From Marsupella aquatica (lineage: Eukaryota > Plantae > Marchantiophyta), in the NCBI GenBank assembly GCA_973895155.1, contig OZ316896.1, forward strand, positions 14,976,684-15,040,683: a DNA stretch of 64,000 bases. Reading direction: 5' to 3'. Below are positions 9,185 through 60,958 of this stretch, piece by piece. Every line of letters begins with the position of its first letter. Position 1 is the stretch's first letter. The notes under the pieces are model-generated. The model was given only the letters and a program-made list of their open reading frames with translations. It searched no databases and was not told where the DNA came from. The position numbers were made by a program, and so were the translations under genes.

Positions 9185-9580
9185 TCAGACGAAGCAATCC
9201 GCGGGCGAACACCCAAATTGACATGAAACGGAGCAAATGCCGTTCGCCTGGTCGGGCGCCGAGTTCTGAAACGCGTAGGTGGCGCCGGCCACGTTTGTAT
9301 ATACGGTGATGAACGTGCTGGGGTCCCAGGTGGCTGCACTGTTCGTCGCGCAATTGAGGTTGTAGAGGCCATCGGCGCCGGGATAGCCGTCGAAGGAGCA
9401 CACTGGGTTGTTTCTATCGTTGTCATATAGAAGAATGGAGGCATGGAAGGGATCAAGAACATTGTGATAGTAGCATGCTTCGAAATTGACACAGCCGTGT
9501 GCTGTGGATGCGAGCATGAGCATCGCGGTGAGGACCGAGAGCCCGACTGAGAGACGGGCGAGGAGAGATTTAGGATTCAT
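9185..9580 (-). CDS. Small secreted cysteine-rich protein (131 aa), unknown function
   Basis: Intronless ATG ORF with a signal peptide (..LSVLTAMLMLASTAHG|C), 8 Cys in the mature part, and a TATA box about 210 bp upstream. Confidence 0.8.
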   Translation of the reverse strand: MNPKSLLARLSVGLSVLTAMLMLASTAHGCVNFEACYYHNVLDPFHASILLYDNDRNNPVCSFDGYPGADGLYNLNCATNSAATWDPSTFITVYTNVAGATYAFQNSAPDQANGICSVSCQFGCSPADCFV

Positions 9581-10150: not shown

Positions 10151-12167
10151 AGCAGATATGGTGATGCCAAAGATTGTAAAGTCAAAATGTAATTATTTCA
10201 AAAATGTTATTATCTCAAAGATGTTGGGAAATAAAAAGACCTTATGTCAAAGATGTCATCAAGTGCAAAGATGTTGTGGCAGCAAAAATGTTGTTAAGTT
10301 AGAAAATGTAGATAACTAAGTAAAGGGATGTAGTTAGTAACAGATGATTTTAAATACAAAGTGTTTATTAGTAGAAGATGTTGTTGATGTAACATGTGTT
10401 GTTAACCAAAAGATGCTGCCAAGTAAAAGACATTGTTGAGGTGACAGAAGTCATCAAGTAAGTGATGTAGTTGTGCAAATGGTGATGTTGTTGGGCACCC
10501 CCAACCCGGGCCCCAACCCATGCGTCTTTAAGTGCAGAACCAAGTGCCAAGACATAACAACAACCAAGGGCTCGGGGGGGGGGGGGGGGAGTTGGAACCA
10601 AGGCAAGGGGCTGAGGTAGGGCCAATGATGGCTCACTTGACACTGAGTATCTGTCCAAGTTGGGTGCGTCTGGACCTGAGACCCGGGGTGGTCCCTCCCG
10701 GCCAGTCGCAAGGGCACTCTGAGAGTAGTTTCGATTGTGTGAGGGAGGGAGGCGGTGCCAGGGCGAGTTGGGAGGGAAGTTGAGGGATTTGCCTCGCCTT
10801 GCCTTGAGGTAGCGCACTAGGGAGGAGGGAGGAATGATTGGGGTTGTCAGGGCGGAGGGAGGCGGAGGCAGCGCAGAAGGCATGCAGTTGGGGCTCGATC
10901 ACCACAACCTGCATCCAAGCTAGGGATGGCAAGGTTTTTTTGCTAAGCCGTGTTGTATTCTGCGTTTTGATTTCTTTCACCCAAAACAGCCCAGCACTTT
11001 TGAATGACGACCACGCCATAAATTGGTGCAAGAGTGTATCATAGTTTTTAATAATATATATTCTTGTGCTAGTTAGCTAGACAGTTTAAAGCTTGTGGTT
11101 GAGGGCAAATACTGAGGCGGAAGGAGAGAACTCACACGCCAAAGGAGGGACCGAGCATCAAAGATACCTCACCCCTCCTTGTCATCCATGCATGTTGAGG
11201 ATGAATTTGAATTCCTTTAAACCACTAATCGTGGTTTAAGTACTCCGGGTGACCCGGAGTAGTCATTCCAGAAACGCGAGTGTCACGTTTGCGGACGCGC
11301 GCCTCACCACAGCCCTCCGATCGAACCTCCCAGGCATCTCATTTGTTCACCGTTTGAGGTGATCTATGGCTCAGATTGAAGATCTCTTTGAGATCTACGC
11401 CTAGCAAAAAACAGCAATAAAAAATGACCCAAAATAAGTGAGAAACAACCGAAAAAGAAACAGACTCTTCTGATTGGTTGCCTACACAATTTCAAATTTC
11501 AAATTTTCGGGCAGGCAGGGCAGTGGACACCTGGCCTCTGAAATACACCTTGCAGGGGATATAGGCGGGTGGGAGCCGCCGGCCTTTGTAAGGGTTCCTC
11601 AGACGTTGCGGAGGTACCCACGGACAGGGCTCACTCCACCCGGCATGGGGGCTGGGATTCTGTTACTACTTTATGATTAGTTATGGTTCCCTTGTATTTG
11701 AAGAGTCCTCATAGCATATTGGTTGGAATCATTGCCTTCCATCCCACAGGTCTCAGGTTCAAGCTTCACTCTCGTAGACACAGGTAAAGTATCAATTTTT
11801 GGCAGTTTCTGCTGTATTCTGTACCCCATGCGGATGGCAACTACGGGAGTTAGTGCAGCCGCCACTTAGGGAGGCAATTAGGGTTAGTTACAAGACCCTT
11901 TCGAACCTCCATGATCCAACGGTCACAAATGTACCCAATGGGGAAGAGGGGTGGAGGAGTGATAACGGGGCAAAAGGGTATGTGTGGTTCACATTTGCCA
12001 TTCCTCTTCACTTCTCTATTGTTGGGTTAGTACTTCTTCTTTCTCCTTGTGTTTTTGCATTCTTTTTGTACAACTTTGTTATTATTCACCGGGTTGGGCT
12101 TGGCATCCGGTCTCCGTTCTAGAGTGTAGATAGGGTTTTTTTTACATAGGTTTTAGAGTAGGTTACT

Positions 12168-15100
12168 ATGAGTGCGGCGGGCCATCCCCCCCCTCTTCCG
12201 GATGGGAGGCTGAAACGCCCCCCCCGGGGAGGTGGTCCACCAAGACAGCGGTATCCGAGTGATGACATAGACTACAAGAAAAGGAGGAGACCGGATGCCA
12301 AGCCCGAAATCCGGGTCCCACTAGATCGGTGGGATGAGTGGGAGGACCTTAGAGCTCTACTTGGACAGGATACCACACACTCCACTGTTGTCACATGGTT
12401 ACTTGATCGTGCGCGACCGACAATTCAGGAGCTTCGGGTATGGCGAGCGTCAGAGGCAGCTCCAATTGGGCCCGAGGCACAACCATCGCCCACGAGTGAG
12501 CAGCACATGGGTCAGCCTTCACGACCACCACGTCAGGTATGTGGATACCTTCTTTCATTCACTTAGCATTTGCCCATTTTATCATTATTTGTTTTTACTC
12601 ACGCTGATGGTACTTATGTCAACTATGCATAATGGGCAGAAACAAAAATATATAGGTTCTTATTTATAGTAACAAATATCAGGGTACTCAAATATTTGTC
12701 CTAATAAACCACAAGTGAAATAGTAAACAAAATTAGGGTACTGTCCACACATTATAATCTATATATCAAGCAATAACAAAGGCCCTGGTAAATAGCAACA
12801 AGAACACATTGTCCAATACTTGCATAAACTGTGACTACCAATGTCCACACATTATAAACCACCATACCAACAAGCACATAGTACTCTCCCCTTACAAATA
12901 GTGTGAATCATAGTTTCTTTATTTTGTTATGTTATGCAGCATTGTAGTAACCAAACAATGGTGCATTCCATAATGTGAGTCATGCCTTTGGGTTCAGGTT
13001 TTTGGGTCTTTCAACAAAATAACTTCAATACCCAAGGACCAACAGCAATTGTTTTTACTCCCTTGAAGTTTATGGTTTAGGTAAAATCATATTTGAGGGT
13101 ACTAATTATTCTATAATCCCCACATTGTTTCTAGGATGGATGGGATTCACCTCTTGAGCAGGATGTAGTTTTGGAGGAGCATATTGCCGAGCAATACGGA
13201 TCAGACGCAGAAGATGATGCCATTTACCGAGATGATGATCCGGAGTCTCTTACAGCTTTAGGAGCTAACAACGTTGGGAATGAGGATACCTTTCAGGTTT
13301 GACCCCCCCCCCCCCTCCCTTTGACACTCTCCTTGCCTTTCCTTGTACAAATTCCAAATTTCTGAATAACACTTTTTGATATATGTATGTGGGCTTCTTC
13401 TACCAGGAGCCATTCATTGCACCTGATTCTCAGCCATCATCAGATATTGGGCCTCGGCCACCAGCACAAACAGACTCACACGAGTCTCATATCCCTGATT
13501 CTCAGCCATCACAGCCTCCGGACCTTGTCCCGACTCGTAGAGCAACGCCTCGTCAACCTGCTAGGGTAGCATTTTTTGATCGCAACTTGTTGGCTACTTT
13601 TGTTGATAGGCTACTCCCTCGGTGTCATATACATGGATGTTCTAGGAGTCCAAGGGTTCAACGAGTGAGGGAGTTACATCAGTTGTGGTCGATTCACATT
13701 GGTTGTGGAGAGGATGGCCATGGCTGGACTTTTGTTACTGGTGACAATGAGCCTGGGAGGAGTTCTCCTATGATTACCCCCCAGTTGTATCATTCCACCC
13801 TTTGCGCTGGCCTCACCTATACGTCTTTGGCTGCTGTTGCTGCACATCTTGGTTTACATGTTCCTACTGCAGCTCATTGGCATGATTTTCAGAGTGGTCG
13901 TGGCCGACCTCGTGGTGGATGGATAGCAGCTGTGAAGGCACAATGGGAAGAAAATAAAAGGCACATGTGGCAGCAGTTGAAGGATGATATTCAGCAACGG
14001 CGAGCAACTGAGCTTGGTAAGTAATTATCTGTTTTAGGTCCTTCAGCTTTTTGGGGTATTCAAGGACCATGCTCTTCTAGCCAAAGTTTTAGTTGATCTG
14101 TTTCTCATATATAGTGCATGTGTGTGTGCTTTGTTTATGACAGACCCTGGGTTACTAGTGTACTTAGATACTCGATGGGATTCTTCTCGGAGCGGTTTTC
14201 ATGGTACCACCTCTATCCTCAATGTTGACGATAATAGGGTAATTGAAATGGTGACAATTACTAGGAGGGAGGAGAGAAATGCTTGGCACATGGAGGACAA
14301 GGGTACTGAAAGAGCATTGGAAAATTTGAGAGAGGGAGGGATCTCTATCACGGAGGTTATCCATGATGACAAAGCCACTATTGATAATATTGTGGAGGAC
14401 ATGGGGATTAGGAACCAGAAAGACTTGTGGCATAAGGCCAAAAATCTCATCAAGAAGTTTGTGGAGAAGATGGTGAGAGCAACCTACACTGTGACCATTG
14501 ACATTGACACTGCTGCATCTCGTTCTGAGTTGCAAGCAGTCACAGCTAAGAAGTTACAGGATTGGTTGAAGAGTAGGGGAGTGAGAGGGTACTCTACTCT
14601 TAGGAAGGAAGCACTCATCCATAAAGTAGGTGACATGCGTGGGCTGCCTCCTGGAGAACTAGTACATATTCCGACACGTGGCCTCAAGTACCCAGAGTTG
14701 TCTCAGCACAACATTGCCACAAAGCTGAAGACATGGTTCTACGTATGTTGTCGTCGGTGTAAGAACAGGTATGCATAGTGCTAATATGGTGTGACTTCTT
14801 GACTTTTACATATCCAAGTGTAGTAATTGTTGCAGATGTGATGATTTAGTTTTGACAAAAGTAACAACTTTCAATGTTCATTATGCAGTGGTGGAGATGC
14901 TGCATCCTTGGCTTTTGAATTGGGCAACTGTGGTGATCATTGGGCCGGGGATCACAGATTATGTGCAGGACTATCTGACCGGCCTTGTCAGCATCTTGGG
15001 GAGCCTGGAGCCATCCAAGTTGACCATTACTATGAGAATGGTAAATCTTTTACTAATTATGCAATTTTAATGTGAGTTATAACTTAGGTTAGCATCGTTG

Positions 15101-15480
15101 ATATTTTATGACTTTTTGTATATGTAGGTGGAGAGACTCATAAGGCCATGCAAAAGTTCATGAGAAAATATATTACTCCCGCGAAGATGAGGTTTTATAC
15201 CATGGCCCGAGAGAATTTCATGTCAGAGACCTACCATTCCGTGATGGGCAAGTATGCGACCAAGCGCATTCATTTCTCAGCCAGTCATGAGGCCCGTTTG
15301 AGTTGTGCTGCCATGGATTGGAACGAGAATATCAGAAGACATGTCTGGAAGGTATACAATCGTACACCTGTGAACACTGCTGTGAGGGAGCGCCCTCCTC
15401 GAACACGAGTATTGGTGGACCGGACCATGAGTTGGAAGGAAGCAACAAGTGAACGCATTTATGGTGTGACTCGTCCATGA
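12168..15480 (+). CDS. Kolobok-type DDE transposase, 6 exons, 756 aa
   Basis: Exons 12168-12536, 13135-13296, 13407-14016, 14144-14768, 14889-15040, 15128-15480. All introns GT-AG and phase-compatible; 2271 nt with no internal stop. Motifs: IRVPLDRWDEWEDLR..LG.....VVTWLLD; C..C..C..GH.W ribbon; YLDTRWDS (D); IHDDK (D); KDLWHKAKN; HWAGDH..C..C.H; SETYHS..KYATKRIHFS...ARL..AAMDWNEN (E). Confidence 0.88.
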
Positions 15481-15944
15481 GGTAACACACTGCTCTATAA
15501 ATATGATTGCCAACATAAAATGTAAGGAAACTCTATGCTCATGGTAATTCTAATTACAATGAGTTTTTTTGGCAGGATGATCCTGGTTGCTCAAACATTA
15601 CCACCCAAGTAGTGTCTCTATATAAGGTCAGCGTACATATGGAGTCACACCTCCATATATGACCTCAGCTAACATACCTCAGGTAAGTGAAAAGTTGTGA
15701 CTCAATCTTTTTGGAAACAATTCATTGTAGTGTGAAAGTTTATCATTTTGTGTACCTCAATTCTAATTTATTGTTTACTATTGCAGGGGTGATTCCTTGA
15801 GGAGGGCTGAGACCTGGCATGACTTGTATTCCACCCTTTTTGGATAGGGTTAGCAAACCACTTGTATTCCAACCTTTTTGGGTAGGGTTAGCAAACCTGC
15901 TTGGGGGGGTACACTATTACAAACACCTGGAATGCTATGCCAAA

Positions 15945-16250
15945 TTTTCACACTTTTATAAATTATCTTTGTAGTCTTGTTTTTTCATGCTGTGGCCCAA
16001 AAACTCTTATAACTTGAGCACCAAGTGAGGGAATGATTATCTTTGTAGTTTGGTTTTTTCATGCCGTGGCCCAAAAAATCGTATAACCTTAGCACCAAGT
16101 GAGTGAATGTGAAAAGTTCATAACTTTTCACACTTTTATAAAAAAAAAATTGTCAAGTTTTTTCATACCGTGGCCAGACAATCTTATAACTTGACCACCA
16201 AGTGAGGGAATGATAAAACTTTAGGACTTGAACCAAGTGAGGGAATGAGT
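15945..16250. repeat. Degenerate tandem repeats in the Kolobok intergenic spacer
   Basis: gtggccca....cttataactt.agcaccaagtgag.gaatga occurs 3-4 times. A separate 58-bp duplication lies at 16394-16504. Confidence 0.8.
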
Positions 16251-16583
16251 AAAGTTTGTGGTTATTGAATGACATATGACAACAAAAAACAGCTTTGAGA
16301 GGTAGTAATCATTTGAGTCCCTTTGGCAACCTTGTTCATTTTGGTTTCATTGAATATGGACACATCCCAAGGGAACTTTTATGGTATTGTAACGCATGTA
16401 CTCCCAAGAGGAATTGAACCCCTTCTGCTGCCAACCAGCAGGAGTTCTACTGCATGTACTCCCAAGGGGAATTGAACCCCTTCCGCTGCCAACCAGCAGG
16501 AGTTATACTCTGCAAAAACTTTATTAGTAGCTCTTCACAAAAATTTCAAACAACAGTGAAACATAGCAGAAGCCTATCTACTC

Positions 16584-16982
16584 CTAATTTGGGATAAATC
16601 CTACAAATTCCTCCCCTTCATCATGCCAAGTTGCCTTCACACAAGCTTCAATAGCTTCGGGAAACTTGGTTCTATCAGAAAACCCAGCTACATAAGCCAA
16701 GTGAGTGTAGACCTGATATCTTTTCCTTCTCATGACAGTTTCAGCATAACTGTATGCTGCGCACATGATAAACTGTTCAATTGGGACTGCAGGATTGAGA
16801 TCCACATGACACTCTGAAATTGTAGTACAGAACTCTGGAAATGTAGCTTGGACTTGTTCCAATGTAACAATCCGGACAACGGGTGGAGCATTGTCAACAT
16901 CAGTAGGATCCTGCCAACTCAAGATGTAGCTCCCATTGTCACGTTCAGTCAATGTGGCTCTCAGCTTTCTAATTGGTGCCAT
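16584..16982 (-). CDS. KolX-like accessory protein (P2X7 cytoplasmic-tail-like), 132 aa
   Basis: ATG at 16982 just after a splice acceptor (ttttatcag|gaacATG). The C-terminus RKRYQVYTHLAYVAGFSDRTKFPEAIEACVKATWHDEGEEFVGF matches the RY..YR......G...R...P.C....IR..FP...G.Y.GF pattern. Convergent with the transposase. Confidence 0.75.
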   Translation of the reverse strand: MAPIRKLRATLTERDNGSYILSWQDPTDVDNAPPVVRIVTLEQVQATFPEFCTTISECHVDLNPAVPIEQFIMCAAYSYAETVMRRKRYQVYTHLAYVAGFSDRTKFPEAIEACVKATWHDEGEEFVGFIPN

Positions 16983-17499
16983 GTTCCTGATAAAATGCAA
17001 CAGTCACATATCACATATGCTGTTGTTGCCCAACATTCTCATATTGCTCGAAACTTGACATTGCAATCACAATATGGCAGCAGAGAAGAAATTCGCTAGC
17101 AAATTTGATTAGGAAGTTCGCTCAAACGTGGTTGTGAGCCAAAATGGATGTCGAGAGCCCAGAAAATCACTGTCAGTGGAGACTGAGAGTACAGTGAGAC
17201 TGAGAGTAACAGCAACAAAATCGTAGTTGAAACTCCAGTAGAAATGCCTCAGCTCGCAGCAGCAGCAAAAAAACCCAACACAAACTCGGGCAAAAGGGCT
17301 ACCAACTCGCAACAGCACAATGAGGCCGAGATCAACAGACTCCTAATCGAATGTTATACAATGTAAACAAGGAGGAGAAAAGACCAGCGAGTTGGAGCTT
17401 CCCTGGTGAACCTGAAGCTGGAAAAACACCTCTATCCTCAACGTTGAATGTGGGCACAATGACATGAACAAGGAGCTTGAGGAATGGAGCGAGCAACCC

Positions 17500-18520
17500 T
17501 TCACCTGCAGCAACAAGCAAGCTTCAGTAGCGATCTAGATTGGTGAGGGAAACCAAGGCAGCAGCGAGCAAGCTTCAGCAGGATCAGCGAGCTTGGACCG
17601 AGGCAACAACAATTCGGGGCACACTTTCAGCTGGGAGGAAGATGCGAGTTGAAGCAGCGAGCTTCAGCTTCAGCAGCAACAGCCGAGGCAGCAGCGAGCT
17701 TCAACCGAGGGAGCAACAGCCAAGGGAGCAACAGCTGAGGCAGCAGGGAGGCAGCAGCGAGCTTTACCAGCAAGTAGAAGGTGCAGCGAGTTGAAGCAGC
17801 ATCAGCCGAAGAAGCAAATCGATTCAGCAACGCCGAGGAGTGAGCAAAAGCGAGCAAGGGTAGCCGATGGCACAACAAGCAGGGGCAGCCGAGGGCGCAA
17901 CAAGCAGCGGCAGACAGTGGCTGGCTATGGCGCCGTAAGGTCGAAGGGAGGAGGGCACACATTCAGCTGGGAGGGTGCAGTGAGTTGAAGCAGCAACCTT
18001 CAGCTTCAGCAGCAACAGCCAAGGCAGCAGCGAGGCAGCAGCGACCTTCAGCCGAGGCAGCAACAGCCGAGGCAGCAACGAGGCAGCAGCGAGCTTCAGC
18101 AGCGAGCTTCAGCAGCGAGCTTCAGCAGCGAGTTGAAGGTGCAGCGAGTTGAAGCAGCATCAGCCGAGGAAGCAACGAGCAACAGCCGGTAGCAAATCGA
18201 TTCAGCAACAGCTGAGGAGTGAGCAAAAGCGAGCAAGGGCAGCCGATGGCACAACAAGCAGGGGAAGCCAAGGGCGCAGCAAGCAGCGGCAGTCAGTGGC
18301 TGGCTATGGCAGCCATAAGCTCGAAGGTAGAGGGAGAGACATGCAGCAGAGAAGCAGAGAAGCAGAGCAGCAGCTCGCAAGAGGAGGCCGAGGATGCAGC
18401 AGCTCGTAGGAGGAGGGGAGGGCAAGGCAGGCAGGCAGCAGATCGCAGTGGCAGCCGAGGGCGAGGCAGGCAGGCAGCAACTTGCAGGGGCAGCGGAGGG
18501 CGAGGCAGGCAGCAGCTCAC
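17500..18520. repeat. CAG/GCAGCAGCGAG-rich compound repeat with an about 350-bp internal duplication
   Basis: gaaggtgcagcgagttgaagcagcatcagccga...gtggctggctatggc occurs at about 17778 and 18136; agcagcgagcttc is repeated in tandem. Confidence 0.85.
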
Positions 18521-19027
18521 AGGGGCAACCGAGGGCTCTAGGGCTGGTGGGGAGGGGGCCCTACTGACGCCGGGTTAGTCCTCCGGGGGAGAACTGGCCG
18601 CTGACCCAGCGGGCAGAGTGGCACGCGCTCGGGCAGGGCTCGGGGTCATTATATACCCCGAGTTGTGGTTTAATAATATTACCATTGAATGATATTTTCT
18701 CTATCATCTATATATATAACCTATTGTGTTTAATTATATAACCTACTTCAATTAAATTATTATCATTATTATATTATGCAATTCAATATTATAGTACCTA
18801 CAGTACTATAATTATTAGTAGAGAGTACCAATGGCATATTCATTATGTGCTCTAGCTTGTACTTCTTGTGAATAGATTACTAACCGCCTTAGTCCTTGTG
18901 GATGTGCATTCTCTCCCTCTTAGTTTGTGTCCTATTTGATTCCCCTCTTGTTTGGAAAATACTTGAATGATTCCCTTTTTGGTGCACACTAAATTTAATA
19001 TAGCGCTTATTCATTCTCTTTCATAGG

Positions 19028-29354: not shown

Positions 29355-32300
29355 ATGGCATCCCGGAAGGTGATCAGTGTAAAGTATGAAGTGGAGCAAT
29401 TCACCGGCCACAATAACTTCACGTCATGGAAAGTACAAATGAAGGACGTTCTTGTTTCCTAGGGCTTGGGTTCAGCATTCAGCACCAAGCCATCCTCCAT
29501 GACCGATGAGGAGTGAGAAGACATTGGCAATCGTGCTCTCAGTTTGATTAGGCTCCACTTGGCACCTGAAGTTTACTTCAGGTTATGACGGAGGACACAG
29601 TTACAAAGCTGTGGGATCGACTGAAGCTTATGTATCAGAAGAAGTAGTTGACAAATCGACTATACACGAGCTTGAAGTTGATGAACTTCAAGATGGTTGA
29701 AGGTAAAACTATGCACGGACATATTGATGGTTTTAATTTAATCGTTGCAGAGTTGGCGAGTCTCAATGAGAAGGTGGAGGATGAGAAGAAGGCCCTTCAT
29801 TTGCTTACTTCCTTGCCACGCTCATATGAGAACCTGGTCTAGACAATCTTGTATGGCAAGACAACGTTGACCTATGATGAGACAGTGAACACTCTGTTGT
29901 CAGACAAAATGCAAAAGAAGATACACAACGGTTCTTCTTCTTCTTCTTCATCTGGATCAGCACTAGCAGTTACCATGGGCAGGTCACGACAGCGTTTTAT
30001 AGGCTCCTCTGGTAAAACCAAGGCTAGATCAAAGTCACGTGACTCGAATGGTGTTGAGTGCTGGAAATATGGTCAGAAGGGCCACATTAAGAGGAATTGC
30101 AGGAGTGGTGGTAGCATTCAAAGTCAGTCGAGTCTTGTTACTTTTGATGATGTTGTTGGTTTTGCCTTATGTACCGGTTCCAAGGTGGGGGACCAGAGTG
30201 GATTTTAGATTCTGCATGTTCCTTTCATATGTGCCATGACAAGGAGGTCTTTTGCACCTATGAACCAAAATCAGGGAACGTCTTGATGGGGAATGATCAA
30301 CCCTGTCAAGTCATTGGCAAAGGTACAGTGCGCATTCAAATGTTTGATGGAGCTGTGCATACGTTGACGAACGTTCGTCACATTCCAGATTTGAAGCGGA
30401 ATTTGATCTCTTTGGGAGCATTGGACACATCTGGTTGTCAATGGAGTACAACCAATGGAGTTTTGAGGGTCACACATGATCCTCTAGCAGTGATGGAAGG
30501 TAGGAAGCAAGGTAATCTATATATCCTGGTAGGCACCACAATTCTTGGTAGTGCCAATGCAGTTTCATCAGAGGTGGATCAGACACGATTGTGGCATGCA
30601 CGGTTGGGTCACTTGAGTGAGAAAGGGTTGAATGTGTTGTGCAAACAGAATCTCTTGCCAAGTGCAAAATCGTGCAAGTTGGGGTTTTGTCAGCACTGTG
30701 TCCTTGGTAAGCAGCATCGTGTAAGTTTCTCAACAGCCAGTCATACCTCTAAAGATATTTTGGATTACATTCATTCTGATGTGTGGAAATCACCTGAGCT
30801 CTCAATGTCAGGAATGAAGTATTACATATCTTTTATTGATGATTATTCAAGGATGATCTGGGTGTACTTTATGCGTGAGAAGTTTGAGGTGTTCTCAATC
30901 TTCAAGAAGTGGAAGATGTAGGTTGAGACACAAACAGGAAAGAACGTGAAATTTCTTTGTTCAGACAATGGAGGTGAGTATATCTCTAATGAATTTCATC
31001 TCTATTTAGAGCGTGAAGACATTACTCGACATTTGACCAATGCATATACTCCTCAATAGAATGGTGTTTTTGAGAGGCTGAACAGGACACTATTGGAGAG
31101 GTACAGAAGTATGTTGAGCCAAGCAGGTCTATCGAAGATCTTTAATTTGGGTTGAAGCTGTCAACACAACAGCTTACCTACTAACATTGTCTCCAATTAG
31201 CAGTATTGGTCTTAAGACTCCGTTTGAGATGTGGCACAAGAGACCTGTAGATTACACGAGGTTGCGTGTGTTTGGATGTGAGGCATATGCGTTATTGCCT
31301 CCAGTTTCACGGAATAAGCTTGATCCAAAGTCTGTGAAATGTGTGTTTCTTGGCTACCAGAAGGGAGTAAAAGGGTATCGTCTTTGGGACCCGAAGGCAC
31401 AGAAGTTGGTAGGACTTCAGCAAGGATGTTTCCTTCAATGAAGGTCCATCATTGAAGGAGGGGGAAGAAATGCCACATACTCCTGATGCTGACACAATTG
31501 AGGGGGAGATTGAGCATGAGTATGCTCATGGACCAACACCCGCGCCGACGGTACCATTGGCACCAGTACCAGTAGCTATAGTTAGTGGAGAATCAGTTGC
31601 TCTTGGTGTGGGTGAGTCATCTAGGCGGTCATCTTCACGGCCAGTTCAAGCTCCAAAAATGTATGGTACATGGTTTCCCTCAGACCAGTTGGAGAGTGAT
31701 GATGATATTGATGATTCTGAAGCCGTTATGCTTATAGAAGATGGTGATCCATCTACATATGGTGAAGCCATGTCTTCTATGGATAAAGCACAATGGAGTG
31801 TTGCCATGCAAACAGAGATGCAGTCACTGTATAAGAACAAGACTTGGGAGTTGGCTGAGCTTCCTAAAGGTTAACAGGTCATTGACAACAAGTGGGTGTT
31901 CAAGAAGAAGGATGACACTTCTGAACATGCAAAGAAGATCTACAAGGTCAAGCTTGTGGCCAAGGGATTCACCCAAAGGAAGGGTGTGGACTATAATGAG
32001 GTCTTCTCACCAGTAGTAGCGATGGCTACTTTGCGCTTGATTATGGCATTGGTTGTTCTGTTTGATCTCTGCATGGAGCAAATGGATGTAGTCACAACTT
32101 TTTTGTATATATGGACTACTAAATGAATTGATATTCCTGAGGCATCCACAAGGATTTGTGGCTAAGGGTAGGGAGCACTTGGTGTGTAAGCTGTGGAAGT
32201 TGCTTTATGGTCTGAAGCAAAGTCCAAGGTAGTGGAACAAGAGGTTTTATACCTTTATGTTGTCACTGGGCTTTGTTCAGAGTGAATATGACGGTTGTGT

Positions 32301-32995
32301 CTACATGAAGAAGGTGAGCAATGCAGTGTTTGGTTTCATTATTTTGGTCCTTTATGTGGATGATATGCTCATTGTTGCCAAGGATATGGCAGAGATTATT
32401 AAACTCAAGACTCAGTTGAGCTCAGAGTTTAGTATGAAGGATTTAGGATCAGCCAGACGCATACTTGGGATGGAGATTCATAGAGACAGGAAGAAGGGGA
32501 AATTGTGGCTGACGTAGAGTAAACTGTATACAACGAAGGTACAAGTTGCTAAGTTCAACATGGCAAGTGCTAAGGTTGTAACTACTCCTCTGGCAACAGA
32601 TTTCAAGTTTTCGGCCGCATCTTGTCCCACAGATGCAATTGAAAAGGGATTGATGTCTAAGGTTCTTTACGACAGTGAAATGGGCAGTTTGATGTACCTT
32701 ATGGTTAGTACTCGACCAGACATAGCGCATGTTGTGGGTGTGGTGAGTAGGTACATGCCTTGGTTAACCTAGGGAAGGTACATTGGGAAGCAGTCAAATG
32801 GATTCTAAGGTACTTACACGGCACATCTGAGGTTGGTTTGTTGTTTGATGCACATTCAAACAATGCGATGTCTTTTGTTGGATATGTGGATTCAGCTACG
32901 GTGGTGATTTGGATCAACGAAAGTCTACTATAGGGTATTCTTTCACGTTGGCAAGAGGATGTGTAAGTTGGAGATCCATGAAGCAGAAGTATTCT
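29355..32995 (+). pseudogene. Copia gag-pol polyprotein, disrupted
   Basis: EQFTGHNNFTSWK (gag); CWKYGQKGHIKRNC (degenerate knuckle); WILDSACSFHM (PR); LWHARLGH..CQHC, HSDVW, SDNGGEY (IN); LYVDDMLI (RT); start of RNase H (RKSTIGYSF..GCVSWRSMKQK), cut off at 32995. Many stops and frameshifts. Confidence 0.95.
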
Positions 32996-35900
32996 TGTAT
33001 ATGTATTCTCTATCCGGTATGTACCGGCTACGGTCTAATTCTAATTAACCGTCATGGAGAAGGGGGGAACATATGTTTTCTATCTAGAATTTCCCGAGGA
33101 GATACATATGGGTAACAAGAGCTAGTACTAGGTAGGTAGTTTATTTCTTAAGTATGTCTGCTCTATTTGACACTTTGTCAACTACGGCTTAGTTCTAGTT
33201 AGCTCTCAAGTATAGAGGGAAAACTCATTGGTTTTACCTTCTAGAACTTCCCGAGGATATTCATACGGATAGTTAGAAGTAACTGTGATGCCTAGACAGG
33301 AATCACTCGGCCGGTTAAGTGGGTAAAGCAGGAAGGCACCTTAGGAACACCTTAGTATAGGGACAAAACAAGGAAAATATAAACAATTAGGGGCAACCAT
33401 GGAACCCGGGCCGAGGCCGGAGGTAAGGCTGAGGGTGAAAACCCGATTAGGGTTAGGGCGCGTTAAGCGTCGGCGGCTAGGAAGGATCAACGGGAAGAAG
33501 GACCGGCGGAGGAGAGGGGTAAGGAGCGCTTGCAGGAGATGGTGGCTCATTTGCGAGCACGAACTAGGCAGACGACTACGGGAGGCCAACTACTGTCAGC
33601 TGCTTAGGCAAGCACTCGGGGAGAGAGTAGATACCGACGATCGACCTAAGGAGGGTATGAGCAACGTCAATCAAGCGGCACATTTCTGGGGATGCCTGTT
33701 CAAACGGGCAACTGAGTACATCAAGACTTACGAGGACGAGGAGTCAGAAAGGGCAGCTCGAGAACGGCAGGAGCTCGCTCGATTGTGGGAGCTGCAGAAG
33801 ATGGCTTTCTTAGGAGGCGAACTCATCAAGGACGAGTTCCTGTGGACGCCTACTTCCAATCAACTCGACGATCTTCTGTTTTGCAAAGACAGCGTCGTCG
33901 GCATCCGAGAGGCCATCAAGAACTGCAACGACATACACTGGGAATTAAAGGGTAGCACGGAAAGGTGGACCCAGGCAACGGTGCTAGGAGAAACCTCTAC
34001 GGCAGCAGAGATGAAGAGGAAGGGAGCCGTCAACGATGAAGCCACCCCGGCAAAAAGAACGAGGTCGGCGGCACCAAAGAAGCCAGCCGAGCAGCAGAAC
34101 AGGAGGCAGGGAGAAGCCGAAGAGGAGGAGGTCGATCCCATCAAGGCCATTCCAACCAGGGATGACACCTGGAATGGCTGGGCGGCAACCCTACCGGTGG
34201 AGGTGCAACTACATTTTGCACGGGAGGAGGATGCATGCTTTACGGCCATGCAAACCAAGAGGTACCAAGGCTTCATGGCCGGATCCGGCTTGGAGGCCTT
34301 TGTAAGATTACCATGGCTGAAGCCGGAGGTACCGGAGTCAGACCTATTAGAATTCGTGGGGTCATGGGAACCCGAGACCAATTGCACGAGGATATATGGG
34401 AAGGATTTCTATCTTACTCCCAAGGTAATTGCCGAAGTGTTTGGCCTGCCGATAGGCAATAAGACCAAAGTTGATACCAGGAAGACCTTGCCTGACAAGG
34501 AGTTCCGGTCGTTCCCCGGGCCATCAACGAAGAATGGCTTCTTCCGGAACACCTGCACCAACCCGCACATAGGAGAGATGATCGACTTCTTGCGGGTGAC
34601 CATGCATTGTAACTTGCCGAGGGCAGAGATCGGCAAGGCACAGGTCTATCTGGCAGAAAGGCCAGACCCAAGCCGGGACTACAACGGGTACCTCCTCAAC
34701 CAATTGAAGAAGATCTTAAAGGAGGAGCAGCAGGTAATCGGCATGGGGAGCGTGTCGCGGCTGGGCTATCATATGCCGCTGTTGTGCCGGTATGCCAGAG
34801 GTCAGACTTTTGCCCCGGTACTTCCCCTGCAGGTAAGGGCACCCGAGGAAGCTCCAACGCCGAGGCCGTTGGCTGAGAAGCCTCAACCACCTGTTAGTCC
34901 TACGATCGAGCAGGTGTTTAGGCCCAAGAAGGAGGACTTGCCGATGCAGCAACCAGGCATGCAGAGTCTGCTGAAACTACTGGAGAAAGAAAAGAAATCG
35001 GCATCGGCAACAACAACGGCAACGGCAACAATGCAGGACACTACTACAGAGGTAGGCCTACACCGGCTCACAAGAGAAAACCCCTTTGCTGGAGACAAGG
35101 AGAGAATCAGGCCGGAATCCAAGCCAGGTGTTCGAATGTACGTGGGAACCTCAAGCTCCGAATCTGAGGCAGAATTGCCTGAAGCTCCTACCGATGAAGA
35201 GGAGAGGGAGAAGCCGGAAGTCCAAGAGGTAGAGGAGGCAGTGGAGGCAGTGGAGGACTGCAGCCATGATAATTCCGGCTATGGGTCGGACCATCACGTT
35301 CCAGGAGTAAGGACCTGTGGCCGGTTTGTCCCCACACTTCCAAGGGTAGTGCGAGGGGACCCCAACCAGCAGAGTAGCCCTGAGTCTCCCCCACCAGATG
35401 TTGCTCCCCCGAGCTTCGACGGCATAAAACAGACGGTGCAGGAATTTCAGGAGCGAATCAAGCAGGAGGAGGAGGCCGCCCTGGCTAAGGAAAAGGATTT
35501 ACCAGGAGGAGATTGGCCGGAGGACATCAGGCGGCTAGCCAAAAAAGGAAGCAAACCTCTAGCCACGATTGAAGAGATCCGCAGGACGGCTTGGGAGCAG
35601 AGGCCGCGATGGGCGATGCCGATCACTTCTACTTACTCCACCTACGCTAAGAATAGAGCCATGGAGTATGGTGAGATGTGTGGGGAACTTGCGCTCGGCA
35701 TCTTTGGAGAGGAGTTGGAGGTAGGACCCTTTTTCCATAGGGAGCAGTTGGAGAAGCACCAATTAGCAGAAGCGGTGGCTTTAGAGAGAAGCAAGAAGGA
35801 CGAGGTCATTCGGCGGCTTAGGAGGATGGAAGCCGAGATTGAAGATCTAAGGGCGGCCAAGAAAGCCCAAGATGAACTGCGGATTAAACGACATGAGCTG

Positions 35901-37961
35901 AACATCATGTAGGGGCAGTTGGACACCGCGCAGGCTGATAATCAGAATATCAAGGATAAACTGACTCAGACGCAGGAAGAGTTGGCCGACACGATCAAAG
36001 AGAGGGAGAAGTGGAAGCAAGAGCTGAAGAATACAGAGGAGGCCCACATAACAGCCAACAGCCGGGCCATGGCGGAAACCCAAAGAAAGGAATGGGCGTT
36101 GAAAGGGGAGCTCGAGAAAATCCGCGGAGCCCTTGAGCAGAAGGAGGCCGAGTTAGGGAAATCCTATCAAGGGATTATGGCGCTGCAGCAGGAGCTTGCG
36201 TCCCTGACGGCCAGCTTCAAGGCCGACCTAAGGGAGAAGGACGAGATGCTCGAACAGACTTACGCCAAGATGAACCAGATGGAGTCTGTCATCATTGCAG
36301 AGCTCGACAAGGAGCTAAAAGCAACCCAGGAGGAGAGGACTACCTTGAAACAAGAACGGGAGGAAGCCCAGAAGGAACTAGAGGAGGCACGCAAGGACCT
36401 GGATGAGACCCAGGAGGAGTTGGAGGAAATCACGAGGAAGATGGAGAACCTCCAGCGGCGGGCCGACAACCAAACGGAGCGGCTGAAGAAACAAGCCGCA
36501 GTATTTAGGTGCTTGTCTTCATCAGGCCCAACTCCAATTGGGGCAACCAAGTTACCAGGAGTGGTACTGGCCGAAGAAAAAGCCGCGCCAACTGCACCAG
36601 TGCCGGAGGTAAGTGGGAAGGGGAAGGGACCAGCTGCCGAACCAGAAAAGAAGAAAAAGCGGAAACCTTCAGGGTCAAGGAGTAATCCGACTCCACAAGC
36701 CGTGGTGACCAAAGAGGTAGAACCAGCACCATCCTCCGACATGAATACGGCAATAGATCCCGCTATGATCACAGGTAGGGATGGTGCGGCCCAAGCCGAA
36801 CTACTCAGTAAGGAGGCCAGTATTCCAGATCCGCCTCTTGAGCAGGCCGGGGAGACCGTAGCCGAGGCTGAGGCCGTAACCGATTCTCGAGCCGATGCCG
36901 ACGCCGATGGTGGACCCAGTCAGGCCGATGGAGAGTTGACTCAGTCAAGGGCAGGTAATCTGTCAGGGAATGAGCATACGGCAGTGGCTGAGGAGGAAGC
37001 GTTGGGGGCGTCCATTAAGGATCCACCACCGGTGTCGTGACGGTGCAAGGGCGCCGTTCCTTTTAGGGAGGGCGGACGTGGAGGGAGGAGGCGTGAGTGG
37101 GCAGGGCGGGCGCGGATCTCCACGTTTAGGATTAGGATCAGAACCAGGAGCGGCCCTGACACTTAGCTTAGTGGGATTGCGGTCCCACTGGTAGGAGCAA
37201 CACTTGTGCTCCTGCCTTGCTGTACATAGGTAGATTCGGGCAAGTAGATTACTGTTAAGTAGATTAGGCTTACGATGCAAAGAATGGCGGATCCACTACC
37301 AGGATAAGTACCTGGGCAGCGGGGAGCTCAGGGCCTCTTCTTTAGCAAGTTTTTAGTTTGCACCAGCCGGGCTGGGATCAAGTAGTACGAGAAGCTCTCG
37401 GTTAGTCATACAGTGACCCTTGTGTATATTCATGTTTCCTCATGCCTAAGAGCTGAATAGAGTTGGCCTCACGGCTTAGTTCGCAGAACTTGTGTATGAG
37501 ATGTACTGTTTGTATGGCAAGTGCATGGTATGACTCAGTCAGAATGAGTCATTTTGCTATTTGTGTGTCGCATTAACTTGTGTGAAGAGTGCCCACATCA
37601 ACAGAAGGAAGGAAAGTAAGCAGGGGAGTGAGAGTTGGATGTGTCGAGCTAAGAGAGGTCTTAGCGGCTTAACCAAGCCTATTGGGGATCATTCTGGCGG
37701 CGGAATCCAAACATACCTAACAAGACGGAGGGGAAGACAGGGGAAGACAAGGGAAGGCCTATATTAGGCCGGCTACGTATCTCATGACCCGATGAAGGAT
37801 CTGTCCAGTATATGTGTGTAAAATGTTAATAGTAGTAGTAGAAGGTTAGCAGCGTCCCATGCCGCTAAGCCGCGGAAACGGCCTCGCCAAGCACGAAACC
37901 TGCGGGAATCGGCTTGAGCTGGGGGGTTTCTTGGGTTTAAGGAGCCATGGGACGCACCACA
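32996..37961. mobile_element. 5.0-kb TG..CA-bounded insertion (solo-LTR-like, Ty3/gypsy-related) replacing the end of the copia RNase H
   Basis: Begins TGTATATGTATTC exactly where copia homology stops and ends ...GGGACGCACCACA shortly before the copia PPT. No matching TSD, no internal LTR pair, no pol. Confidence 0.6.
33399..37040 (+). CDS. About 1210-codon retroelement accessory ORF (putative plant-transposon domain plus long coiled coil), one in-frame TAG
   Basis: ORFs 33399-35912 and 35919-37040 share a frame, separated only by TAG at 35910-35912. GLEAFVRLPW...LLEFVGSW...IYGKDFYLTPKVIAEVFGLP resembles the extra ORF of Athila/Tat-type elements. Extended heptad region. Confidence 0.65.
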
Positions 37962-58540: not shown

Positions 58541-58852
58541 TTCAAAACCGCCCCGAGTATGGCAATGCAAATGGTAGTGAGTAGGGATTCCGACCTCTCC
58601 ATGAGAAGCTAAGGAGGTTATGACATTGGATGAAGGGAAGAAGTAGTAGATAGCTTTATCGAATTTCCGTCGGATTTACGCCCAAGGAGAGTGATTTTTC
58701 TGTGTGCGAATGTGGCGAACCGTTAAGTTTTGTAGCATTGTTTGAATGCATGCAGATTAGACCGTTGTGAGGATCAAAACCCAACAGCGAATTGCGGTCC
58801 CCCATTTGTTTCATATAGCGTCGCTTCTGAATCTCGTTCAGAACGAGTAAGT

Positions 58853-60958
58853 ATGGCTGCCCGTTGCAGACGATGGGTGCTGCCACTGCTGTTGATTGTG
58901 CTGCTGCAGATTTCTGTAACGCAAGCTGCGTGGCCATGGACGTCGGAAACTGAAGGCGATTCGGCAGGAGATGTTGCAGGCACTGTAGATGAGTATAAAA
59001 CGAAGGCAGGCGAGCACCTCTCCGAAAGCGCTTCAACTGCGAAGGATAAAGTTGGAGATACTTCAGCAGCTGCAAAGGAGTATGCGGATAAAGCTGGAGA
59101 TACTTCAGCTGCTGCAAAGGAGTATGCGTCGCAAAACAAGGACGAAGCTGTCAATTCCGGTGCAGGTGTCATCGACCGTGCCTTAGAGTATGGACGCTCC
59201 GCCTCGGAAAAATTGGGAGAGACCTACGAGAATGCCAAGCTCAGCATCAATGAGTTTGTAAGCGGAGGAGCAGAGAAGGCCACCGGCACGAAAGATCACG
59301 TAGTTGGCTCCGCGAAAGACGCCGCTGACAGTGAATTAACAGACCCGTACCACTATGCAACAAGGGCTCAAGAGGCAGCAGCGGGAGTTACGGGCTCTGC
59401 CAAAGGGTACACTGGAGCGGCTGGGGAGAAGTTGAACGAAGCCAAGGAGTATGCGAGACAGGCCTCTGGGAAGGTATTCGGGAAGTCGAGTGAAGCGAAG
59501 GATTCTGCAAAGGAGCAAGTAAGCAGCACCGGAGAGCAGGCAGCTGCCACCAAGGATGGAGTGGTGCATTCCGTCGGAGAGTACGCGAGCGCCACCGGTG
59601 AGAAGTTGGGAGATACTTACGACATCACCAAACAGAAAATCACAGGCACAGCTTCTGCTGCTGGAGAGAAAATCATCCCGGACAAAAATAACCCGGACTC
59701 CATCAAGGAGCATGCTACCAAGGCCAGCGAGAAAACGGCTGCCACGAAGGATGAAGTGACCGATTCTACTCGGGACTACTCTAATTTGGCAGGAGAGAAG
59801 TTGGATTCGGCCAGGTACGGAGCTGCAGGCACTGCGAACGAGTATGCTGGAAAAGCCTCGGACAAAGCCGCTGCGAGCAAGGAATCCGTCGGGCAAAAGG
59901 TGGAAGAGACTACGGGAGCAGCCTCAGAAAAAGCTTCAGCAACCAAGAACTCAGCCGGACAGAAGTTGGGAGAGACTGCTGGATCTGTCTCAGAGAAAGC
60001 AGGAGCTACCAAGAATTCAGTCGGACAGAAGGCTGGAGAGGCCTCGGACAAAGCAGGAGCGACCAAGAATACAGTCGGACAGAAGGTTGGAGAGGCATCT
60101 GACAAAGCAGCAGCGACCAAGAATTCGGTCGGGCAATCGCTGGGGGAGACTGCTGGAGCAGCCTCAGAAAAGGCAACCGCGTCCAAGAACTCAGTTGGGC
60201 AAACCGTTGGCGAAACTGCTGGATCAATTTCAGAGAAAGCAGCAGCTGGCAAGGACGCAGTCGGGCAGAAATTGGGGGAGGCCTCGGATAAAGCTGCAGC
60301 AAGTAAGGAGGCAGCTGGGCAAAAGTTGGGGGAAACCTACGAATCGACTAAGCAGACTGTCCAAGATTTGCCAGTAATCACGAAGGATTACAGCTCCAAA
60401 ACTGGGGAGAAAATCACCGACATCAAGGATGAGGTGGTAGGAACTGTCTCAGATGCCACCCGGAAAGCTGGTGCATACGCTTCGGAAACTAAGGATGGAG
60501 TGGTGGGATCTGTTTCGGATGCTACCGGGAAAGCTGGTAAATACGCTTCGGAAACTAAGGATGGAGTGGTGGGATCTGTTTCGGATGCTACCGGGAAAGC
60601 TGGTAAATACGCTTCGGAAACTAAAGATGGAGTGGTGGGATCTGTTTCGGATGCTACCGGGAAAGCTGGCAAATACGCTTCGGAAACTAAAGATGGAGTG
60701 AAGAGATCTACGTCGGATGCTGCAGGGAAAGCTGGTGCATACTCTTCGGAAACCAAGGATCAAACAACGCAAGCCGCTTCCGAACATGGTTCCAAGGCTG
60801 GAGAGTATGCTAAAGCTGCCAAGGATGCAGCAGGGCGACCTTTCGAGAGTGTTACAGAGAGTGCCAAGAATCTCGCTCACGACGCGTCACAAAAGTATAA
60901 CGATGTGCAAACACTAGAGAACAGTGACGACCCTACAACCGTCCACTCGGCATTGTAA
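58853..60958 (+). CDS. Group 3 (LEA_4-like) late embryogenesis abundant protein, secretory/ER type, 701 aa
   Basis: True ATG at 58853 (MAARCRRWVLPLLLIVLLQISVTQAAWPW, signal peptide). A/K/E/T/S/G-rich 11/22-mer repeats (AKEYADKAGDT; ASETKDGVVGSVSDATGKAGKY). C-terminal HSAL. Intronless. Confidence 0.9.
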   Translation: MAARCRRWVLPLLLIVLLQISVTQAAWPWTSETEGDSAGDVAGTVDEYKTKAGEHLSESASTAKDKVGDTSAAAKEYADKAGDTSAAAKEYASQNKDEAVNSGAGVIDRALEYGRSASEKLGETYENAKLSINEFVSGGAEKATGTKDHVVGSAKDAADSELTDPYHYATRAQEAAAGVTGSAKGYTGAAGEKLNEAKEYARQASGKVFGKSSEAKDSAKEQVSSTGEQAAATKDGVVHSVGEYASATGEKLGDTYDITKQKITGTASAAGEKIIPDKNNPDSIKEHATKASEKTAATKDEVTDSTRDYSNLAGEKLDSARYGAAGTANEYAGKASDKAAASKESVGQKVEETTGAASEKASATKNSAGQKLGETAGSVSEKAGATKNSVGQKAGEASDKAGATKNTVGQKVGEASDKAAATKNSVGQSLGETAGAASEKATASKNSVGQTVGETAGSISEKAAAGKDAVGQKLGEASDKAAASKEAAGQKLGETYESTKQTVQDLPVITKDYSSKTGEKITDIKDEVVGTVSDATRKAGAYASETKDGVVGSVSDATGKAGKYASETKDGVVGSVSDATGKAGKYASETKDGVVGSVSDATGKAGKYASETKDGVKRSTSDAAGKAGAYSSETKDQTTQAASEHGSKAGEYAKAAKDAAGRPFESVTESAKNLAHDASQKYNDVQTLENSDDPTTVHSAL

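Follow-up and report, generated by a model that had tools for sequence, protein, structure and literature searches.

The stretch of Marsupella aquatica DNA analysed here (the window, 64,000 nt of contig OZ316896.1) carries, between two copies of TTAA, what we read as a DNA transposon with two genes. The larger gene, on the plus strand, is predicted to encode a transposase in six exons; the smaller one lies on the minus strand and converges on it. An inverted repeat encloses the predicted start codon of the transposase, two tandem folds resembling transfer RNA (tRNA) follow the small gene, and a block of GC-rich tandem repeats separates that gene from the right terminus. Positions are collected in Table 1.

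Table 1. Predicted features of the element, in window coordinates
Feature	Position	Strand	Remarks
Left copy of TTAA target duplication	11217..11220	+	Loose contig ends pile up directly before 11217
Left terminus	11221..11260	+	ACCAC core of terminal inverted repeat; inner inverted copy of the core (11231-11239); perfect 9-bp palindrome
Inverted repeat	12096..12305	+	20 bp, perfect; arms enclose predicted start codon (12168)
Transposase exon 1	12168..12536	+	Helical N-terminal domain common to Riccia relatives; no THAP
Transposase exon 2	13135..13296	+	Acidic linker; least certain exon, without homology support
Transposase exon 3	13407..14016	+	Cys/His motif (C250, C255, C277, H282); helical region preceding the core
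Transposase exon 4	14144..14768	+	D389, D455, DLWH signature, SAP-like insert
Transposase exon 5	14889..15040	+	
Transposase exon 6	15128..15480	+	E673, DWNEN motif, stop
Two tandem tRNA-like folds, 46 nt each	16400-16445 and 16458-16503	-	Acceptor-like stem, T-like loop, no anticodon arm
Accessory gene, 132 amino acids, convergent	16584..16982	-	KolX-like C-terminal motif, without cysteine cluster
GC-rich nested tandem repeats	17530..18560	n/a	Upstream of the small gene
Right terminus	18634..18669	-	ACCAC core of terminal inverted repeat; 8-bp palindrome resembling the left one
Right copy of TTAA target duplication	18670..18673	+	One TTAA only where the flanking repeat lacks the element

The six predicted transposase exons are joined across five GT-AG introns into a frame of 756 amino acids with one terminal stop and none internal. 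The catalytic codons at 14167, 14365 and 15226 specify D389, D455 and E673, the DLWH signature occupies residues 474-477, and a His/Cys cluster is formed by H606, H611, C614, C622 and H624. Aligned with a protein from the liverwort Riccia (P0001), the spliced product is 39% identical over 732 columns (E 9e-155), with junctions 3, 4 and 5 of the gene model lying inside the aligned sequence; homology supports exons 1 and 3-6 of the predicted model. In public sequencing runs, contigs of related copies are concentrated on the exons and the small gene, with sparser cover over most introns. Among 40 listed of 1276 rows, related copies show 10 coding differences, 9 of them at synonymous third positions; 7 of the 8 differences listed in exon 3 are synonymous. 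This synonymous excess, which comes from a selected subset, fits both reading frames. No exact intron match occurred among the 15 listed of 87 contig joints. A Pfam scan of the window exons returned nothing above the curated cut-offs, and exon 1 gave no THAP match at E up to 1; a relative from a tick scores THAP at E 6e-25. The initial annotation of the locus had described a stop-free, six-exon, 756-residue transposase with D/D/E, DxWH and H..H..C..C.H motifs and no THAP, and on each of these points the gene model agrees with it.

The extent given in that annotation (11217..18673, with a TTAA duplication and short imperfect terminal inverted repeats) also holds. The inverted arms measure 22 nt and are 82% complementary, with ACCAC inward of each TTAA. 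For the perfect end part, TTAA plus ACCAC, the window has 3 matches where 0.71 are expected, a number attained in 2 of 100 shuffles. The inverted repeats are therefore weak evidence when taken alone, and it is contigs that establish the left end instead. With TTAA counted as duplication, the termini read AC...GT. Two hairpins can form in the left terminus (fold z -6.7, 0 of 200 shuffles), and its palindromes are likely binding sites for the transposase. A repeat scan found no long terminal repeats for the element.

We used contigs from public runs to look at the element in other contexts. Six runs, from two studies, contain the stretch, four of them with at least 80% of its words. Contigs that start exactly at 11217 with unrelated flanks (agreement 0.47-0.53) numbered 4 in run X1, 7 in X2 and 5 in X4; 9 of the 30 pieces listed, out of 141, begin exactly at this position, and none of them at 11216 or 11218. 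The element is inserted in a repeat, other copies of which are element-free with one TTAA (6 contigs in X2, 5 in X4 and 2 in X5) and read through into the right-flank match (11 of 12 bases in X2 and X4, 10 of 12 in X5). The source of this empty form is paralogous copies of the repeat and not the locus itself. That flanks are unrelated from a single exact boundary onward, and that target copies occur without the element, shows mobility, and recent movement by cut-and-paste is likely. The right end is marked by a contig of depth 65.5 that stops at 18674 and shows 0 differences.

Copy number was estimated from depth. In X1, five long exact contigs have depths of 60-70 and the flank 13-15; the ratio, 4.7, would correspond to about 4-5 near-identical copies, and the family is likely to comprise 4-5 such young copies. 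Diverged relatives (85-95%) are numerous in the contigs. Run X5, with a depth of about 4, held diverged family members only, which we do not take as absence. The young, multi-copy family proposed in the initial annotation is therefore backed by depth, by left ends at TTAA and by unrelated flanks, and the empty sites that it had suggested looking for have a counterpart in the paralogous, element-free repeat copies. Contaminant assembly, which it had named as a possible refutation, was rejected: in X1 and X4 a contig with 0 differences spans the junction between flank and element, making contamination unlikely. Segmental duplication was likewise rejected.

To place the transposase we turned to its relatives. 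A search with exon 4 among 1.84 billion proteins gave 171 representatives at E up to 0.001, of which 150 were listed and 30 of these looked up by name. The first six matches are 30-47% identical over exon 4, and six longer proteins were obtained, all from Riccia. The named look-ups comprise 7 Riccia, 6 Chara, 3 Closterium, 2 Calypogeia, 3 animal (loach, scallop and tick) and 8 unnamed entries, the remaining one being a cluster labelled Pyramimonas/Prorocentrum. Riccia accounts for 29 of the 30 proteins found in a profile search. Liverwort relatives belong to Riccia sorocarpa, R. fluitans ('SAP domain-containing', unannotated) and Calypogeia fissa, and an algal one to Chara braunii. No seed plant, fern, lycophyte or moss is among the named relatives, a weak result because transposons are often masked before annotation. 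Metagenome contigs contained one 1-kb fragment of a distant relative, and viral contigs none.

By sequence pattern, the 150 listed matches divide into 52 of a green type, 8 Kol0-like, 7 DARH-like and 83 unclassified fragments or variants, the Kol0-like and DARH-like labels having been given by comparing first-D motifs by eye with Data S5 of PMC9587614. The nearest classifiable non-green matches have Kolobok-like motifs, and their alignment starts before the first D and continues past the E; a profile built from 12 close relatives matches the Kol0-like loach protein with a probability of 97.8 (E 1e-12, 229 columns). From these nearest matches we infer a position inside Kolobok. A tree was built from 38 rows and 248 columns, from which the insert described below was removed. 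After three long rows (P0142, P0145 and P0147) are dropped, the 23 green rows group at 99/98, on a branch separate from the Kol0-like (100/99) and DARH-like (100/99) branches, and the window protein falls among 14 rows that include proteins of Riccia and Calypogeia (97/95). The protein from the Pyramimonas/Prorocentrum-labelled cluster (P0033, 891 amino acids) sits on a long branch among the liverwort rows, a placement for which transfer, old paralogy and cross-contamination are candidate explanations.

Green rows share an SAP-like insert of about 65 amino acids in the catalytic core, and Pfam SAP is called in several Riccia proteins. Between the histidine of DxxH and a conserved W lie about 100 amino acids in most green rows, versus 28-39 in Kol0-like and DARH-like rows. 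For a structural model of the Riccia homolog P0001 (predicted local distance difference test score, pLDDT, 78.8) the best fold matches were ISCth4 (Z 13.8), P element and Hermes, all of the C/DxxH group, to which Kolobok belongs. Residues 385-575 of the model matched Arabidopsis Plastid Redox Insensitive 2 (Z 7.0, 92 residues); a common helical arrangement in the insertion domain probably accounts for this. The occurrence of relatives in Chara, in Closterium and in two genera of liverworts speaks for a long stay in green plants rather than for recent horizontal arrival. The initial annotation had allowed for either an ancient or a horizontal origin, and these relatives lean towards the former, with neither established. 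Its lineage without THAP is borne out, and to this are now added a separate green branch and the SAP-like insert, which it had missed.

The small gene has two unnamed homologs, 64% and 72% identical, and is covered by diverged copies at high contig depth, both of which suggest that it likely travels with the family. As the initial annotation had stated, it converges on the transposase gene. Over its last 46 residues it aligns almost without gaps, by eye, with the KolX-like protein piggyBac-2_GrCh_2p (Data S6, PMC9587614), sharing R, Y, T, G, R, P, W, DE and GF. Two patterns drawn up post hoc match only this open reading frame in the window, with 0.0 and 0.02 matches per shuffle (300 shuffles). 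The frame has four scattered cysteines, not the seven-cysteine zinc cluster of KolX, and an upstream coding exon is possible. Sequence searches of the PDB gave weak formate dehydrogenase matches only, an Atlas search gave no usable match, and a fold search with a model of pLDDT 55 reached a best Z of 5.9 with no E below 0.001. No domain like the product of the small gene occurs in the transposase proteins collected. On balance we favour, with some reserve, descent of the second gene from KolX, a homolog of the P2X7 ballast.

These features can be set against the known diversity of Kolobok. In the sections of Kojima and Bao 2022 (PMC9587614) that we consulted, the superfamily is defined by TTAA duplication together with RR...YY ends, and its plant members are given as a chlorophyte and rhodophytes only; the accompanying alignment includes Micromonas and Chondrus rows and a row, KlNi, whose name suggests Klebsormidium. 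The Micromonas and KlNi rows bear a CCHC finger after the first D (PMC9587614), which is missing from the window element. AG ends and THAP are among the usual features in the consulted part of PMC6004289. The window element has in common with the superfamily a DDE triad in which C/DxxH stands after the second D and before the E, a His/Cys zinc finger between DxxH and E that is kept in most green rows, a 4-bp TTAA duplication (a TA duplication inside TTAA would give the same letters), and nearest non-green transposases that are Kol0-like or DARH-like by motif. It differs in having no THAP and in its SAP-like insert of about 65 amino acids after DxxH. Its family occurs in liverworts and streptophyte algae, whereas the plant listing in PMC9587614 covers a chlorophyte and red algae.

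With Kol0 (type Kolobok-1_XT) the element shares the DxWH form of the signature, the lack of a CCHC finger after the first D and a small second gene whose tail carries a KolX-like motif. The first-D motif, however, is DxRWDS and not GDGxxDSPG, and the Kol0 KolX differs from the second gene in its seven-cysteine zinc cluster and its N-terminal half. Membership in Kol0 was rejected, as the window protein stays outside the branch (100/99) in which the Kol0-like rows are gathered. DARH-type rows (Kolobok_1_MyEd, Kolobok_1_OwFu and Kolobok_16_CGi) have a similar C-terminal core, which reads K-R-I-H-F...DWN in database matches of their type, but lack the SAP-like insert (36-39 amino acids versus about 100) and occupy a separate branch. 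The Riccia, Calypogeia, Chara and Closterium proteins, deposited as hypothetical host proteins, have the same domain order and the insert. KolobokP, E, D and H were rejected for want of an insertion after the first D, of long terminal repeats and, on the exons and small gene scanned, of any nuclease or helicase Pfam family. The piggyBac transposases have a DDD triad without C/DxxH; here the third residue is E and DxxH is present, piggyBac stands low among the fold matches of the Riccia model (Z 7.7, versus 13.8 for ISCth4), and piggyBac was rejected. The element would work like a Kolobok transposon and by descent is likely one, but it lacks two classical marks, RR...YY ends and THAP; since its ends depart from RR...YY, we do not file it as canonical Kolobok. 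The Kolobok-type assignment of the initial annotation is upheld, the transposase being no piggyBac and most likely no MULE. That annotation had also taken TTAA targeting, a DDE transposase and a second KolX gene as defining Kolobok; the type stands, while the element lies outside Kol0, the KolX-defining lineage, and its AC...GT ends break RR/YY. Its remark that Kolobok is not among the standard plant superfamilies needs qualifying, since PMC9587614 already has Kolobok of other lineages from a chlorophyte and a red alga.

Taken together, these results make it quite probable that the locus holds a two-gene TTAA transposon whose DDE transposase is homologous to that of Kolobok and belongs to a separate green branch, and which has moved recently by cut-and-paste and is present in 4-5 copies. 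The target site can be read in another way. If, in the same element, duplication is confined to the TA in the middle of a strict TTAA, the ends become AA...TT and satisfy RR...YY; filled and empty sites have identical letters under both readings, so sequence cannot separate a TTAA from a TA duplication, and under either a classical rule for Kolobok does not hold. In the Kolobok elements described, TTAA is duplicated, and in KolobokP 3-5 bp, with no 2-bp case in the parts of PMC9587614 and PMC6004289 consulted, and we regard the TA reading as improbable. Slightly less probable again is that the green branch is a separate C/DxxH superfamily, sister to Kolobok. Non-canonical ends, the lack of THAP, an insert of its own and a long branch would suit such a status, as would a best fold match to the IS256-type ISCth4; this last does not discriminate, because no Kolobok structure was among the fold results. 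The nearest classifiable non-green matches are nonetheless Kolobok-like and aligned from the first D to beyond the E, and the TTAA target and the KolX-like second gene likewise point to Kolobok.

MULE/MuDR elements have long terminal inverted repeats and variable duplications of 9-11 bp, with which a 5-bp core and a fixed TTAA do not fit. One could still suppose a MULE-like element, or a domesticated and immobile gene pair, beside which TTAA and short inverted repeats occur by chance: the perfect core of the repeats is only 5 bp, and relatives weakly match the Pfam family PF20700, 'Mutator-like'. That family, however, also matches the Kol0-like proteins P0148 and P0149 above cut-off, PF10551 (MULE) matched none of the named green rows scanned, and the exact boundary with unrelated flanks, together with the element-free targets, largely refutes immobility. 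We consider this explanation very improbable.

Returning to the Kolobok-related TTAA transposon, several observations weigh against it. The public runs possibly include the window's own sample and cannot count as independent; depth summed over contigs does not give a copy number; and among the rows listed there are no right flanks of other copies. A second pile of contig starts lies at 11234-11241, where diverged relatives share the left subterminal region minus its first 20 or so bases. SAP was not called on the window's own exon 4, which gave a weak Rho_N match only (E 0.029). In the full 38-row tree the green rows group at 89/74, and the root is arbitrary because the outgroups are Kol0-like and DARH-like only, with no MULE, hAT, P or other Kolobok lineages and no Repbase sequence. 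The gene tree departs from the species tree, with Closterium outside Chara and the Pyramimonas/Prorocentrum protein among liverwort rows, so that vertical descent is not established. The ends are AC...GT where the superfamily has RR...YY. For the small gene, finally, Pfam, PDB sequence, Atlas and fold searches returned neither KolX nor P2X7; its identification as KolX in the initial annotation holds for a tail motif alike by eye, and finds no profile or fold match.

For the Kolobok-related transposon we propose the following mechanism, of which we infer all binding and regulatory steps. The spliced 756-residue protein would bind the ACCAC ends and the subterminal palindromes through its N-terminal helical and Cys/His domains, which would replace THAP, and the SAP-like insert in the catalytic insertion domain may add to its grip on DNA. 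Cleavage of the ends, and their joining to TTAA across a 4-nt stagger, would fall to D389, D455 and E673. In its small convergent gene the element likely carries along a relative of KolX, free of the cysteine cluster. Transposase output could be damped by the hairpin around the start codon, which would limit translation if it is transcribed. Green plants have likely hosted the family from a time earlier than the first land plants, and seed plants have either lost it or had their copies overlooked. A bolder reading makes the element part of an undescribed, still active, TTAA-specific lineage native to green plants and spanning streptophyte algae, liverworts and this host, in which THAP was replaced, SAP gained within the catalytic core, the ends changed to AC, KolX freed of zinc and output limited by the element's own RNA structures, namely the start-codon hairpin and the tandem tRNA-like folds past the convergent gene; this we think possible, while leaning slightly against it.

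Land-plant DNA transposons are usually sorted into a handful of superfamilies, and a young, complete element of this kind would extend Kolobok to land plants. When 1007 plant genomes were screened for 17 superfamilies, Kolobok included, recently active elements came from only seven, Kolobok not among them in the part of the report consulted (PMC12973397); the main text of the Riccia genome paper, as far as available, leaves Kolobok unmentioned (PMC11923412); and a spinach repeat survey has it, in the portion consulted, among 67 minor automated calls (PMC6337768). We found no description in the literature of Kolobok in a bryophyte or of the green branch, which may be catalogued in Repbase/Dfam, outside our search. 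The element thus apparently represents an undescribed green-plant variant of Kolobok-type transposons. Liverwort annotations, where relatives go unrecognised under the label of 'SAP domain' host genes, would need correcting, the RR...YY rule would prove non-universal, and the element would offer a testable system for the role of KolX. An enzyme specific for TTAA and suited to plant cells might be put to use as a tool. If the active green lineage is real, the land-plant mobilome gains a further superfamily and a plant-native, TTAA-targeting transposase.

The inverted repeat around the start codon folds with a z of -5.0 (0 of 200 shuffles). Near 12323, summed contig depth in X1 is about 80 times that of the flank, which implies that high-copy sequence shares this stretch, perhaps in non-autonomous derivatives. 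The tandem tRNA-like folds begin 80 bases past the stop of the small gene, where contig depth is very high. They match the Rfam family mascRNA-menRNA at 32 and 28.8 bits (gathering threshold 42.5; E 0.0018 and 0.013), with fold z of only -1.9 and -1.4, and a mascRNA-like identity is a hint only; they could be 3'-end processing signals or the remnant of a tRNA-derived repeat. ARAGORN called no tRNA, and two other T-loop-like matches in the window did not fold unusually.

Elsewhere in the window, the initial annotation had considered every other transposable element decayed. This is not confirmed: a Copia pol does lie in separate pieces (30151-32514), but a CACTA (Transposase_21) gene on the plus strand (612-2600) keeps two long open reading frames, which an intron, and not decay, may separate. 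These transposon genes, an LEA-like gene and the liverwort origin of the nearest relatives are in keeping with a seed-free land plant as host. Beside the Copia pieces lie two long adjacent open reading frames of 855 and 375 amino acids without Pfam matches (33345-37040, plus strand). A single-exon frame on the minus strand (9188-9580) encodes a small cysteine-rich protein with a signal-peptide-like start and no Pfam match above cut-off, and a long repetitive LEA-like protein with a hydrophobic N-terminus is encoded on the plus strand at 58736-60958.

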